Origin: a virus
Length of the DNA: 64,000 bases
IMG/VR virus record: IMGVR_UViG_3300043331_000919
Coordinates: 15,507 to 79,506 of that record
Reading direction: 5' to 3' (one strand)
The notes beneath the pieces are model-generated. The model worked only from the letters and a program-made list of their open reading frames with translations. It had not been told where the DNA came from and made no database searches. This document shows, piece by piece, positions 1,558 to 60,913 of this stretch (position 1 is its first letter; every line of letters starts with the position of its first letter). The position numbers and the translations under genes are program-made.

Positions 1558-1661
1558 CGATCTGAACGGGCGTTCCAACGGCGTTGGCACTCGCCGGGGG
1601 CTTGGTCGAAGTCACCCCTGAAGGCGCCGTCTGGGCGCTACGCCCAAGGAGAGGAGCCTCG

Positions 1662-3110
1662 ATGGCGATCAAGGGTGGTCAGATCCTGCACGTCGGCAAC
1701 GGCGTCTCGGTGATCGACCGTGTCCAGACCGGTGGCCCCGGTCAGCTGAACATCCCGACCGAGAAGATCAACGAGCTCGGCAACTACAAGAGCGTCGCCA
1801 CCATCCGGGACACCCCGGACCTGACGTTCTCGCTGGAGTCGCTCGACGTCTCCACCGAGATCGAGGCGCTGATCACGCGAGCGTACGGCGGCCGAGAGGT
1901 CTCCGACGCCGACATGACCGTGGCCGACAACACGCTCACCTCGCTGACTGCAGCGTTCACGTCCGACGACGTGGGCCGCCAGGTGGTCGTGGCCGGCGCC
2001 GGTGCGAACGGTGGCGACCTCGTCACCACCATCGACACCGTCACCAGCGCCACCGAGGCCGAGCTCGCAGACCCGTCCGTCGGGGCCGTCACCGGTGCCG
2101 ACCTGCGGATCACCGTCGGCGGCATCGACCTCGCGCTGGCCAAGCCCACCGACTTCGCCAGCCAGTTCAAGGCCGGTCGTGACGCGGCCGAGCCGTTCCG
2201 CGTCGTCTGCGGCGTCGCGATCCCGTACCTCAACCTGGAGTCGGTGTCGTACCGGTTCGGCCTGCGGGACAACGCCACGCAGACCGTGAACTTCCGCGGC
2301 GACTCGATCTTCTACAGCCCGGGCGGCGTCTACGTCCAGGAGGTCGCCGGCACCGGCACGGCGGACCAGGAGATCGTCACCGACCACCCGGCGTTCGAGG
2401 TGGCCGAGGGCGACGCCCGCCGCATCCTGTCGATCACTGCGGGCAGCAAGCGGCTCGCGTTCGGCGCCGACTACACCGAGGCGTACGGCGCGGTCGCCGG
2501 CGGCGCGGCCGTCACCACGGTCACCCTCGACGAGGCCGTGGCGACCACCGAGATGGTCCGGGTCGTCTACGCCTCGCCGGACGTGCTCACCTACGACCAG
2601 TCGGTGCACGCCGACCCGGCGGTGAAGCCGGCGGCCGTGAAGGGTCGCGACATCGAGATCTACGTCGGCGGCTACGACCCGGCTGACCACGCCGGCTCGG
2701 CGGTCAACAAGCTGGCGTCGGTGCAGTCGGTCGGCGTCGACTGGCGCGTCACCCTGGACCGCGACGAGGAGCTGGGCAACCACTACGCCGTGGCCCAGGA
2801 CCACCTCGACGTGCCCGCGGTGACCGGCTCGGTGGACATCAAGCCGCGCGACCCCGCGGACCTGACGGCGCTGATCCGGAAGTTCCAGGGCGTCGCCGAC
2901 GCGACCAAGGTGCTCGGTCCGTCCAGCGCGGTCCCGCTGCCGCTGGACATCCTGATCAAGCACCCCGACACCGGCGCCGTCCTGAAGCGCCTGCACGTCC
3001 CGGACGCCCGGTTCACCACCCCGGGCTACCAGGGTCGCGCGGCGCAGAAGGCGACCGTCACTGTGCCCTTCGAGTCCGACGAGGGCAGCCTGCTCGTCTT
3101 CGAGCGCTGA
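1662..3110 (+). CDS. Major tail protein
   Basis: Strong RBS AGGAGAGGAG; 482 aa; followed by a hairpin, a frameshifted chaperone and the tape measure gene. Confidence 0.75.
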   Translation: MAIKGGQILHVGNGVSVIDRVQTGGPGQLNIPTEKINELGNYKSVATIRDTPDLTFSLESLDVSTEIEALITRAYGGREVSDADMTVADNTLTSLTAAFTSDDVGRQVVVAGAGANGGDLVTTIDTVTSATEAELADPSVGAVTGADLRITVGGIDLALAKPTDFASQFKAGRDAAEPFRVVCGVAIPYLNLESVSYRFGLRDNATQTVNFRGDSIFYSPGGVYVQEVAGTGTADQEIVTDHPAFEVAEGDARRILSITAGSKRLAFGADYTEAYGAVAGGAAVTTVTLDEAVATTEMVRVVYASPDVLTYDQSVHADPAVKPAAVKGRDIEIYVGGYDPADHAGSAVNKLASVQSVGVDWRVTLDRDEELGNHYAVAQDHLDVPAVTGSVDIKPRDPADLTALIRKFQGVADATKVLGPSSAVPLPLDILIKHPDTGAVLKRLHVPDARFTTPGYQGRAAQKATVTVPFESDEGSLLVFER

Positions 3111-3126
3111 TCGGACAGCTGGAACT

Positions 3127-3160
3127 CGCCCCGGAGCCCACCCGAGAGGGCTCCGGGGCG
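3127..3160 (+). terminator. GC-rich hairpin after major tail gene
   Basis: CGCCCCGGAGCCC / GGGCTCCGGGGCG 13-bp stem in the intergenic gap. Confidence 0.6.
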
Positions 3161-3206
3161 GTCCCGATTCGGGACTGGAATGGAACAGGACTAGGACAGG
3201 AGCACC

Positions 3207-4115
3207 ATGAACATCAGCGAGCGCCTGCGGCGGGTCACGGACCTGTTCGTGGAGGGCACCGAGGTCTACCTCGGTGACGACGAGGCCGGGCAGCCGGTCG
3301 TCATCTGGGTCAACAAGCTGAACTCCTTCGAGGTCGAGGAGGCCCGCCGCGACGGCCAGGCCCGCCGCGGTCTCCGCATGGTCGAGCTCGGCAAGGAGGA
3401 CAACCCCGAGCGTGCCGGCATCGTCGCCGAGATGGCGCTGTGGGACGACGACCAGCTCGCCAAGAACTACGTCGGCCAGAAGGCGGACGAGATCGACCTG
3501 GAGGCGTACAACGACCACTACGCCGACCCCGAGCAGCGCGAGCTGCTGGAGACCATCACCCGGATGCCGCAGCTGCTCGACGAGGCTGGAGTCGCTGAGG
3601 ACGACCCGCGGCGCACCGAGCTGATGAACGCGCAGGCCGCCTGGATGCAGGCCCTCGCCGACCGAACCAAGAAGCTGCGGAGCCGCGCGCTGGAGGACGC
3701 CCGCGCCGAGGAGCGCGAGGCGCTGGAACGGGCGTTCATCGAGAACTGGCGCCAGCGCGAGACGCTCGACGTGTTCATGGCCGAGCGTCGCAACACCCAG
3801 CTGTTCTACGCGCTGCGCGAGTGCAAGGCCCAGGACGTCTCCACCGGCGCCCGGCCCGGCAAGGTCTGGGACCACAGCGCCTGCGACCACAGTCAGCGAC
3901 TCGTCGAGGATCGCGCCGAGGTCCGGATGCTCCCGGACACGATCATGGCGAGGTGCATCGAGACGCTCGACGAGATCACCGTCCCGCAGCGTGAAGCGGG
4001 AAACTCGGACGCTCCGGCGAGTTCCTCCGCGTCGTCGGAGCCTGCAAGGCAGCCGGAGGCGACGTCACAGGGATCTTCCCCGGAGGTAGCCCCCTCCGAG
4101 CCCCCCACGAGCTGA
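3207..4115 (+). CDS. Tail assembly chaperone (short form)
   Basis: Between major tail and tape measure genes; contains in-frame slippery heptamer G GGA AAC. Confidence 0.8.
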   Translation: MNISERLRRVTDLFVEGTEVYLGDDEAGQPVVIWVNKLNSFEVEEARRDGQARRGLRMVELGKEDNPERAGIVAEMALWDDDQLAKNYVGQKADEIDLEAYNDHYADPEQRELLETITRMPQLLDEAGVAEDDPRRTELMNAQAAWMQALADRTKKLRSRALEDARAEEREALERAFIENWRQRETLDVFMAERRNTQLFYALRECKAQDVSTGARPGKVWDHSACDHSQRLVEDRAEVRMLPDTIMARCIETLDEITVPQREAGNSDAPASSSASSEPARQPEATSQGSSPEVAPSEPPTS

Positions 4116-4330
4116 CGATCGCGGTGGCCGAGGCGCTGCGGGTGCTCGGCTACTTCTCCGCGCCGGAGGACGAAGTACCCAGCGAGAACATCTGGCACCA
4201 CCCCCAGCGCTTGGAGGAGTGGTTCGAGGCGGTCAAGCAGCGCCGAGAGAACGGGATGCAGCCGGTCGAGGCTGCGGACGACGCGGACATGACCGGCAAC
4301 GAGCTGGCACGGGAGCTGAGAGGGGACTGA
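3207..4330 (+). CDS. Tail assembly chaperone, -1 frameshifted long form
   Basis: GGGAAAC at 3998-4004; the -1 frame is open from there (KLGRSGEFLRVVGACK...ELRGD) to TGA at 4330, 1 nt before the tape measure ATG. Confidence 0.8.
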
Positions 4331-59609: not shown

Positions 59610-59743
59610 GGCCCTACGTCTGCGAGGCTCGGCATCCGTCGGGCCTCCAGTGCTGGCACCGCGGTGGCCGGCCGCACGAGCACCTCGCCGTGATGCCGAA
59701 CCGCAACAAGGACGTCACCACGCGGCCGACGGTGATCCGCTGG

Positions 59744-60070
59744 TCAGCTGGCGAGCCACTTCTCGACCGCGTCGCGGTCTGAGAGGTCCGGGGCCGGGTC
59801 AGCTGCCCGGCGGCCCCAGTCGTGCACGTACTCGAAGACGTGACCCCCGTCGCCCAAGGCGCTGGCCGCGATGATCTCGGCCTCGATCTGCTTGTAGTCG
59901 GCGCGCGTCTCGGCGCCCGGCAGCACGAAGATGTGGTCGCCGGTCCCGAGGATCCGCCCCCGCAGCGGGGCGCCCGGCGCGGTGGCGTAGATCCAGTCTC
60001 GGGGTCCGAAGCCCCTGGCGCGCGCGAAGTCCCTCGCTGCCTGGTGCGTCACCGCCACGATCACCTTCAT
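59744..60070 (-). CDS. Hypothetical protein, C-terminal tag (PDLSDRDAVEKWLAS)
   Basis: Probable leaderless start. Confidence 0.6.
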   Translation of the reverse strand: MKVIVAVTHQAARDFARARGFGPRDWIYATAPGAPLRGRILGTGDHIFVLPGAETRADYKQIEAEIIAASALGDGGHVFEYVHDWGRRAADPAPDLSDRDAVEKWLAS

Positions 60071-60117
60071 GAAGCCCATCATCCTGGCGTCGTCCAGACC
60101 TTTCGGGACGCGCGCCG

Positions 60118-60525
60118 TCAGTCCTCGTCGAGCCAGCGCTCGGTGCTCTCCCGGCTGCGCAGGTCGGGGTAGGGGAGCTCGGGGCCGATCGGGTGGCGGT
60201 ACATGCCGCCGGGGCGCTGGGGCCCGATGGGGTCCTCATGGTCGGCCGGCGAGAGGAAGATGAAGTCGGGGGCGAACATCGCCGGCCAGCGTGCCATGAG
60301 CGCGCCGAGCCCCGCTGGCCCGAGCCAGGAGGCGACCATCGAGGGGTCGGCGAGCGCGACGAAGCCGCCGATGGAGAGCAGCCACACTCCGGTCGCCCGG
60401 AACGCCGGCCGGACGATGCGCCAGCGCATCCGCTGCCCCCAGCCCTCGGGCATGTCGAGCAGTCGCCGCATGCGTGCGTACGACGCCAGTCCGAGCCCCG
60501 CCACGATCGGCAGGGCCGCCAGCAT
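60118..60525 (-). CDS. Membrane protein, C-terminal tag (PDLRSRESTERWLDE)
   Basis: Three hydrophobic segments. Confidence 0.6.
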   Translation of the reverse strand: MLAALPIVAGLGLASYARMRRLLDMPEGWGQRMRWRIVRPAFRATGVWLLSIGGFVALADPSMVASWLGPAGLGALMARWPAMFAPDFIFLSPADHEDPIGPQRPGGMYRHPIGPELPYPDLRSRESTERWLDED

Positions 60526-60806
60526 CAGGTGCTCGCGAGCCACCGCTCCAGCGCCTCGCGGTTGGCCGGGTCAGGCATGGGAGTCACGAGCTGCAGGTCG
60601 TCGACGTGCCAGCCGACCACGTCGTCCTCCAGCGCGACGGTCGCGAGGCTCGATCCGTCGGCCGGCAGCACCCTCACCGTGCCGATCGACCCCGCCACGC
60701 CGGCGAGCCAGCGACGCCAGTGAGGGCTGTCCATGGAGGTGCCGTTCACGTCGCCCAACACGGTCTCGGGATTGCCCCGGAGCATCACTCGATCGCCAAC
60801 CTTCAT
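60525..60806 (-). CDS. KOW/SH3-like protein, C-terminal tag (PDPANREALERWLAS)
   Basis: MKVGDRVML. Confidence 0.65.
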   Translation of the reverse strand: MKVGDRVMLRGNPETVLGDVNGTSMDSPHWRRWLAGVAGSIGTVRVLPADGSSLATVALEDDVVGWHVDDLQLVTPMPDPANREALERWLAST

Positions 60807-60913
60807 GTGCACCATGATGGCGCCGACGTCCAGACCTTTCGGAGCGGCTGGGTTGCGACAACGTCCGTTCAGGTGCGATGGGGCGCCCTTCGGCGAGGGC
60901 CGAAGTAGGAGTC

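Follow-up and report, generated by a model that had tools for sequence, protein, structure and literature searches.

This study deals with a 64,000-nucleotide window of viral DNA, bases 15507-79506 of the 79,506-bp IMG/VR virus record IMGVR_UViG_3300043331_000919 (working label G000, also L015), and with a short palindrome, AACGNNCGTT (AACG-NN-CGTT), which is dispersed over this window in 41 exact copies. The network of palindromes is real and strongly selected, and it extends over a whole clade of uncultured phages. Judged from the sequence pattern, the copies are probably docking sites for one phage-encoded, two-fold symmetric DNA-binding protein, part of them placed at regulatory regions. 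Positions refer to the window by default; coordinates marked G000 refer to the whole record and lie partly outside the window.

The 39 positions listed in a first-pass annotation of the window are all exact matches, and two more copies (23627 and 34294) had been overlooked. With about one copy per 1.6 kb the palindrome is about 100-fold enriched; dinucleotide shuffles of the window contain a mean of 0.35 copies and never more than 4. The whole record holds 49 palindromes (0.62/kb) and no copy of the reversed control word. The arms are invariant in all 49 copies, the two letters of the spacer vary, and any other spacer length (AACG-Nx-CGTT, x = 0, 1 and 3-8) is found in 0-2 copies only. All 24 one-mismatch variants sum up to 10 copies, with about 16-19 expected. 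The depletion of near-cognate words that appeared strong under a Markov null was gone with a codon-aware null and control words and is an artefact, so that the safe claim is that near-cognates are not enriched.

The gene calls used here are rough and based on the GC content of third codon positions (GC3), and all assignments to coding sequences (CDSs) or to intergenic DNA are approximate. Within called CDSs 32 palindromes were counted. The codon-preserving shuffle, set beforehand as the refuting test, fails to explain this number, since 300 shuffles gave 1.6 +/- 1.2 copies with a maximum of 6. The in-gene copies occupy all three reading frames (17, 9 and 6) and the encoded peptides are unrelated. 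They use A- and T-ending codons which are rare in this genome, as the first-pass annotation had observed: GTT accounts for 4.7% of the valine codons, with 17 of the 78 GTT codons of called genes falling in sites, and NNA codons account for 4.5% of all codons. The C or G described there as flanking most copies turned out to be background composition at position -1 in G000, where weaker symmetric preferences reach out to -6. A reading of the palindrome as an RNA hairpin was rejected: with a stem of 4 bp, a loop of 2 nt and, in G000, flanks that are not conserved, it forms no stable structure.

The palindrome is shared by uncultured relatives of G000 whose terminases are 47-80% identical, whose GC contents range from 0.60 to 0.69 and which contain 0.2-0.7 copies/kb. 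Terminase relatives at 61-80% identity (L005-L010) carry 0.3-0.7 palindromes/kb, with G034, the contig of L006, holding 14 in 48 kb, and the contigs L235-L237 (GC 0.60-0.67) carry 0.35-0.5 palindromes/kb. Two syntenic but more distant genomes, G006 and G003, were among the matches listed when IMG/VR was scanned for two sites close together, and with 43 palindromes in 86 kb and 23 in 131 kb, respectively, both show genome-wide enrichment. No palindrome was found in the terminase relatives at 47% identity or less (L011-L014). The sister genome G035 (136 kb, 95% complete), which is closest to G003, has none at all despite the same core genes. G035 contains a word of its own, TTCAG-N3/4-CTGAA, in 14 copies (0.2 expected; L144-L146). 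Thirteen of them lie in 0.9-28.5 kb and one outlier at 100165, so that this word was dismissed as an equivalent network and is a regional feature.

The same IMG/VR scan might suggest a very widespread motif. Counts over whole records showed that most listed matches are local tandem arrays with periods of 11, 12, 16 and 21. Examples of such arrays containing AACGNNCGTT are G023 2642-2739 (period 11 bp), G025 11716-11805 (16 bp), G004 56626-56695 (12 bp) and G033 10695-10759 (11 bp). The contigs in question belong to unrelated viruses (GC 0.35-0.69), and the arrays, which may be iteron-like, are distinct from the dispersed palindromes.

Only three positions of G000 (4413, 6545 and 9157 on the record) are common to any relative, at a DNA identity of about 70-75%, and the homologous positions in relatives mostly deviate in at least three of the eight core bases. 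This shows that the density of palindromes is a clade trait, and that selection acts on their number and even spread and not on single positions.

The core word is invariant across lineages, and the symmetric preferences flanking it differ, even among close relatives. The G006 lineage prefers G.TGCS-core (TGCS-core-SGCA) and is the only one with C at -2. G003 has T at -2, the L237 group CcGaC, L231 and the G034 group C at -3, and G000 G at -3; the preferred centre dinucleotide also depends on the lineage. These lineage-specific preferences extend to about +/-11 bp. Symmetric flanks that evolve around an invariant core suggest that a protein which would co-evolve with the phage covers about 18-22 bp.

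In G000 the palindromes are spaced more evenly than random positions (coefficient of variation (CV) 0.66 vs 0.97, P=0.001), and the largest gap of 4,175 bp compares with 7,087 bp expected (P=0.0045). The empty stretch at 52.6-55.4 kb pointed out in the first-pass annotation is real (2,866 bp), yet it is not the largest. The two arms of small non-structural genes are the more densely occupied, with 0.72-0.87/kb as against 0.46/kb in the structural part. While 19% of the record is uncalled, 17 of the 49 sites are not wholly within a confident CDS, which is about twice the expectation, and a further 8 are situated within 100 nt of a called start. About half of the sites are thus at gene boundaries and about half deep within genes.

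A part of the boundary sites is associated with a conserved intergenic element, (A)AAGGTCTKGAC-N9-ATSATGG. Four of its six strict copies have a palindrome 12-24 nt upstream, for which we calculated a chance of about 3e-5 in a 60-nt window. For two looser copies the distance is 10 and about 38 nt, and the overall range is 10-45 nt. Such elements precede the sigma-factor region and the replication module, and likewise the operon of the MerR-like gene and the divergent region near the right end. The first-pass annotation had placed three palindromes just upstream of promoter-like motifs, and in each case an element was found. The intergenic site 14793..14802, at the head of the rightward replication/recombination module, lies 21 nt upstream of the promoter-like element GGTCTTGAA (14823..14831, +), which is of the GGTCTKGAC-N9-ATSATGG class. 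The intergenic site 58671..58680 lies 12 nt upstream of GGTCTTGAC-N9-ATCATGG (58692..58700, +), ahead of the operon of the MerR-like gene. The site 60860..60869 is located in the divergent intergenic region, 9 nt before CDS 60878 (+) and 24 nt upstream of the leftward element GGTCTGGAC-N9-ATCATGG (60828..60836, -), whose ATG is the start of CDS 60525-60815. Two intergenic sites 91 nt apart, 55408..55417 and 55499..55508, lie in the control region which heads the leftward arm, the first of them 10 nt upstream of the looser copy GGTGCTTGAC (55427..55436, +). One element in the window, GGTCTGGAC at 60092..60100 (-), has no palindrome upstream. Further copies outside the window are found at G000 1397 (-), 2256 (+) and about 13540 (+). 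The element may serve as a promoter used by the phage alone, perhaps with its own sigma factor, or else as a second operator. The core of the element, GGTCTKGACC, is close to a palindrome and looks like a dre half of the DasR/GntR type.

The first-pass annotation had taken the palindromes for sites bound by a dimeric protein, and this is the reading which we retain as favoured. The dyad symmetry, the lineage-specific flanks, the placement upstream of the intergenic element and the absence of a comparable site set from host-type genomes (see below) all argue for it. Binding itself, an effect on transcription and a genome-wide role are what we infer from the sequence statistics, the comparative pattern and a predicted protein fold. 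A phage-encoded dimer would bind every copy and read about 18-22 bp, made up of the invariant AACG-NN-CGTT core and the evolving flanks, and selection would maintain the number and even spread of the sites rather than individual positions. Sites just upstream of the conserved element would tune the transcription of several operons, and the intragenic ones would work collectively, either as roadblocks that silence transcription or by coating and organising the whole genome.

We looked for the protein that might read the palindrome. The readers proposed in the first-pass annotation, namely the ORFs (open reading frames) at 24985, 26820 and 55752 and the MerR-like gene at 59286, are not conserved in the motif-bearing relatives: the MerR-like gene was found among the clade genomes in G000 only, and the helix-turn-helix (HTH) ORF at 26820-27473 has no homologues in the relatives. 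In the ORF 26820-27200 (-) a clear HTH (VSVLAISRQTGIPRGTIYNHLTREG) lies in the C-terminal half, and the tail behind it is rich in Cys and basic residues. WhiB genes are missing from the other motif-bearing genomes, and the sigma factor and a Zn-ribbon gene are missing from G003. A ParB/KorB/Noc-type reader was rejected, as PF02195 (ParB_N) had no match in G000, G006, G003, G034 and G035 and did match control genomes. A TetR/PaaR-type reader was rejected as well, since PF00440 gave noise-level matches only (at most 14 bits) and none of these five genomes has a real TetR domain. Only the MoxR and VWA genes were present in both G006 and G003 and not found in G035. They were discarded because the G035 contig breaks there and because they have no DNA-binding features.

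A conserved HTH protein of 181 residues, gX (G000 3897-4442, +, outside the window), is our tentative candidate, and on its sequence and predicted structure the most likely single reader, though less likely than not; our wider claim is for a phage protein in general. The gX gene is wedged between a conserved 214-residue gene (G000 2915-3559) and the large terminase in every member, and the family comprises 112 members of about 180 residues, all from metagenomes. Four of four orthologues give consistent HTH_31/HTH_3 matches, which stay below the Pfam thresholds. An AlphaFold2 model built with 46 homologues (pLDDT 86, above 95 over residues 70-160) is predicted to have the five-helix Cro/C1-type (XRE) HTH fold. 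Its best fold matches are HigA, DdrO, C.AhdI, SinR, P22 c2 and 434 Cro (template modelling score 0.7-0.78 by target for 434 Cro, P22 c2, SinR and C.AhdI), and a protein atlas agrees. In six-frame scans of G000, G006 and G034 gX is the sole XRE-type HTH protein. Palindromes are carried by 14 of 15 distinct gX-bearing contigs, the exception being a 1-kb fragment. In 12 of the 15 a site is located within gX or at most 90 nt from its 3' end, at no fewer than four different codon positions, so that these sites were gained more than once. If gX is the reader, it would be made along with the packaging proteins, and its action could then come late in infection and extend over the entire genome.

Several points weigh against these two proposals. 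About half of the sites are deep within genes, far from any promoter, and most lack positional conservation, which is a poor fit to classical gene-by-gene regulation. Specificity of an all-or-none kind would rather be expected of an enzyme than of a regulator. Homologues of gX are encoded in the motif-free G035 (47% identical to the G003 protein), in L012 and L013 and in phage GX15bay; gX thus belongs to the core genes, and common descent confounds its association with the motif. No informative palindrome was found near the gX gene of G035. The recognition helix of gX varies (AHPQLSRY, HRATLLRY, DHRELSRL, NPRVFRRK, AHVPLHRL), while the core word is constant; in the motif-free G035 the helix is changed to TQSHLCR. 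Finally, the two half-sites are centred only 6 bp apart, a distance uncommonly short for an XRE dimer, unless much of the contact is made by the flanks.

An unlikely, though the best surviving, alternative is that the palindrome is the site of an enzyme, either a dimeric nuclease or nickase, serving recombination-dependent replication or making terminase cuts which are resealed by Ku and ligase, or a DNA-modifying enzyme. All-or-none specificity with near-cognates at background, even spacing and turnover without positional constraint are features that would suit an enzyme. The clade also has a Ku and ATP-dependent ligase module, a PD-(D/E)XK nuclease, a RuvB-like ATPase and a Sak4-like ATPase, and the mycobacteriophage Corndog, the closest analogue, encodes Ku too. 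However, Ku, the ligase and the PD-(D/E)XK nuclease are present in the motif-free G035 as well, and no nuclease or methylase tracks the motif. A modification target, as had been suggested in the first-pass annotation, is not borne out, nor is the target of a restriction-modification system or an orphan methylase. The sole DNA methylase, a C5 cytosine methylase (45195-46319, -), occurs within the clade in G000 only and is absent from G006, G003 and G034, and the PAPS-reductase-like and VRR-NUC genes are likewise missing from the other motif-bearing genomes. The symmetric flanks to +/-8-11 bp, different in close relatives, resemble a protein footprint, the placement upstream of the intergenic element would be left unexplained, and nicking at a palindrome would mean double-strand breaks every 1.6 kb or so.

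It is rather improbable that the reader is a host protein, i.e. a conserved actinobacterial regulator or nucleoid protein, which is recruited by the phage or titrated off the chromosome by decoy sites. An 8-bp core that is invariant down to 47% terminase identity would fit a slowly evolving host protein, and the TetR-family PaaR (TTHA0973) of Thermus thermophilus has the operator consensus CNAACGNNCGTTNG (PMC6651687). The 10-bp core of that operator is identical to the phage palindrome, so a dimeric HTH protein can read this word. We counted the palindrome in 306 Actinomycetota genomes (5 named and 301 sampled ones), which need not include the phage's own host, and found 0-60 copies per genome, that is at most 0.02/kb compared to 0.62/kb in the phage. 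For 11 of these genomes, which are unpublished, only counts were used (G160, G041, G214, G266, G088, G279, G058, G188, G122, G308, G128). The 10-60 copies of some host-type genomes would be enough for a small regulon. However, the extended G006-type site was found in 16 of 151 genomes and the control in 12 of 151, which is no excess. The low counts and the missing excess argue against a conserved host regulon and also against words of the Chi, KOPS or uptake-sequence type, which host and phage would share and which we rejected for the sampled genomes. The shift of the flank preferences between close relatives and the complete lack of copies in the sister genome G035 speak against a host reader, too.

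We regard it as distinctly improbable that the evenly spaced palindromes are a packaging label rather than transcriptional operators. They would mark or clear the concatemer as phage DNA through a packaging-associated HTH protein, or set cut points which are rejoined by Ku and ligase. What suits such a label is that gX occupies the usual position of a small terminase, directly upstream of the large terminase, and that a palindrome is nearly always in or beside gX, as is the case with pac sites.

Operators of the host LexA (Cheo-type GAAC-N4-GTTC, in actinobacteria lengthened to TCGAAC-N4-GTTCGA), which would couple the phage to the SOS response and to which the first-pass annotation had likened the spacing, are highly improbable. 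The AAC-N4-GTT spacing agrees and 12 of the 49 sites do read GAAC-N4-GTTC, but the other 37 lack the G/C that completes the half-sites, C being as frequent as G at position -1. The invariant inner CG..CG is foreign to the LexA box, and host-type genomes have no comparable site set or matching regulon. That the palindromes have no function and arose as a side effect of codon usage, of repeated peptides, of duplicated cassettes or of mutational bias is largely refuted: two sites (16508 and 17554) were copied along with a duplicated 5' cassette, but the codon-preserving null, the use of three frames for different peptides, the otherwise unrelated flanks, the recurrence of the trait at contig GC contents from 0.60 to 0.69 and a peptide tag that lies at most 100 nt from a site in 2 of 15 cases (1.7 expected, hence no association) all contradict it.

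The duplicated cassette (16464-16517 and 17510-17563) consists of a tag-coding stretch with a palindrome 32 nt further on, and it starts two dissimilar PAPS-reductase-like genes. The first of its sites, 16508..16517, is in the 5' part of CDS 16341-17498 (+), the second, 17554..17563, in the 5' part of the second gene. This pair is the sole case seen of the palindrome spreading by duplication. The peptide tag, ..R..[VA]E.[WF]LD, is common to 15 ORFs, many of them coding for unrelated small proteins. Examples are found at 16464, 17510, 26393, 28072, 34812, 35113, 35381, 37453, 39623, 39672, 56513, 56703, 56923 and 57381.

The remaining sites follow each other along the window. The first one, AACGGGCGTT (1565..1574), is intergenic, 8 nt past a stop and 10 nt ahead of the next start. 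Sites in rightward genes are located at 3727..3736 in CDS 3207-4115 (+, frame 1), at 7902..7911 in the tape-measure CDS 4332-9155 (+, frame 0), at 9889..9898 in CDS 9587-10408 (+, frame 2) and at 13630..13639 in CDS 13466-13933 (+, frame 2). Within the replication/recombination module the AAA_24 CDS 18433-19977 (+) contains the site 19488..19497 in frame 2, and the site 20537..20546 lies 79 nt into the primase-helicase CDS 20458-22503 (+). After the helicase gene a small Cys-rich ORF goes along with a pair of sites 54 nt apart (22607..22616 and 22661..22670). Further on, 23627..23636, one of the two overlooked copies, is in CDS 23423-23827 (+), 24420..24429 is at a gene junction 9 nt into CDS 24411-24704 (+), and 25839..25848 is in CDS 25717-26031 (+). 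A second pair, 65 nt apart (26673..26682 and 26738..26747), marks the end of the rightward arm.

Leftward genes contain sites at 28258..28267 (CDS 28066-28398, -), 29258..29267 (CDS 28952-29812, -), 29974..29983 (DUF4262 CDS 29763-30206, -), 31401..31410 (CDS 30967-31671, -), 32440..32449 (RuvB-like CDS 31927-32946, -) and 34294..34303 (CDS 33860-34543, -; the other overlooked copy). The site 28710..28719 is in a leftward coding frame, with the GC3 phase equal on both flanks. The DUF6744 CDS 35514-36500 (-) has two sites, 35770..35779 and, 68 nt into the gene, 36423..36432; the site 39891..39900 is likewise 68 nt into its CDS 39660-39968 (-). Next come 41010..41019 in the MoxR AAA+ CDS 40201-41430 (-), 41491..41500 near the 3' end of the ATP-dependent DNA ligase CDS 41440-42363 (-), 42482..42491 in CDS 42342-42707 (-) and 44846..44855 in CDS 44675-45109 (-). 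The site 44158..44167, at a gene junction of the leftward arm, reads on the minus strand GGAGAA and then ATG ACA ACG CCC GTT, and 50354..50363 falls at codons 2-5 of CDS 50147-50368 (-), with ATG AGA ACG CTC GTT after GGAGAA. The site 47233..47242 is at a gene boundary about 50 nt downstream of CDS 47288-47899 (-), where the coding status is uncertain, 48154..48163 is 47 nt into CDS 47827-48210 (-), 51515..51524 is in a stretch without a confident gene call and 52542..52551 is at the 3' boundary of CDS 52550-52939 (-).

The record G000 is linear, with a GC content of 0.69 and a CheckV completeness of 81%, and looks like a siphovirus. A sigma-70-family gene is encoded at the left end of the record. 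The rightward structural genes include a tape measure of 1,607 residues, and the rightward replication/recombination module comprises a PD-(D/E)XK nuclease, the two PAPS-reductase-like genes, the AAA_24 ATPase, a Toprim-DnaB primase-helicase and two WhiB-like genes. The leftward arm of about 28 kb encodes RuvB-like, DUF6744, VWA, MoxR, ATP-dependent ligase, Ku, C5 methylase and DUF4192 proteins. Its module of VWA, MoxR AAA+, ATP-dependent DNA ligase and Ku (37788-44104, -) is also present in G006 and G003. A gene for 143 residues at 20006-20437 and the DUF6744 gene are among the other conserved ones. No integrase or repressor family was found among the G000 ORFs scanned in this 81% complete record. 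The WhiB genes point to an actinobacterium as the likely host. They are arranged in tandem (24701-24988 and 25206-25514, +), and chromosomal WhiB proteins of Streptomyces, Kribbella and Rhodococcus share about 80% identity with the second one.

Contigs holding this stretch of phage DNA are present in four soil metagenomes of 2020; a search of sequencing runs listed no RNA dataset. Among cultured phages a Megablast search with 25 kb of the record gave no match, tblastn with the terminase gave only GX15bay at 38%, and tblastn with gX gave no match. A prophage relative was not found in bacterial genome contigs.

Several known systems resemble the phage network in part. The stoperators of Cluster A phages, bound by the L5 repressor gp71, are 13-mers without symmetry that point in the direction of transcription, and they form part of the immunity system of temperate phages. 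The conserved inverted repeats (CIRs) of the Streptomyces phage phiC31 are mainly found at early promoters and terminators and not inside genes. What these systems would have in common with G000 is a single phage DNA-binding protein that acts on transcription through 20-30 genome-wide sites, including sites in transcribed regions. In contrast to a stoperator the G000 site is a perfect palindrome and has no orientation, and neither an integrase nor a repressor was seen among the ORFs scanned. KorB-OB of plasmid RK2, Noc-NBS, SlmA-SBS and MatP-matS are scattered short palindromes, many of them intragenic, through which one dimeric protein acts on a whole replicon. Here the difference is that five genomes of the phage clade have no ParB_N or TetR-family protein and that the replicon is a phage, lacking any sign of plasmid maintenance. 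PaaR, which shares the core word, serves a small metabolic regulon in an unrelated bacterium, and the phage clade has no TetR-family gene.

The closest likeness is found in the Cluster O mycobacteriophages. Corndog contains a 17-bp dyad repeat, TGTTCGGNNNCCGAACA, in 34 copies (Cresawn et al. 2015, PMC4351075), and our recount also gave 34 copies, unevenly spread (CV 1.06) at 0.49/kb. The Cluster O repeats are situated between and within genes, few of them near promoters, they are absent from host genomes, and their reader and function were left unexplained (PMC4351075). Both cases concern an actinobacteriophage with more than 30 dispersed copies (49 in G000), invariant inverted arms and a free spacer. 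Corndog and G000 both encode Ku and a C5 methylase, the G000 methylase being 34% identical to the methylase region at the left end of Corndog; these are the sole homologous genes, and no structural genes are in common. The words differ, and Corndog has one AACGNNCGTT. While the Corndog sites mostly keep their positions across the cluster and crowd in the early arm, those of G000 turn over and are evenly spread. The G000 network is also denser (0.62 vs 0.49 per kb), has a shorter core (8 vs 14 specified bases) and covers a much deeper divergence.

Dispersed invariant palindromes with an unexplained reader and role have thus already been described in a few actinophages such as those of Cluster O. 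What is new is the trait across deep divergence, with selection on density and evenness rather than on positions, and the combination of a sister genome that has naturally lost the motif with a single conserved HTH candidate, which can be expressed without culture of the phage. If gX is confirmed, its 112 metagenomic homologues are a series in which the co-evolution of a protein and a whole-genome site set can be followed, and the outcome would tell if networks of this type are there for regulation, for organising the genome or for packaging. We class the phage network as a variant of the known but unexplained type that Cluster O represents.

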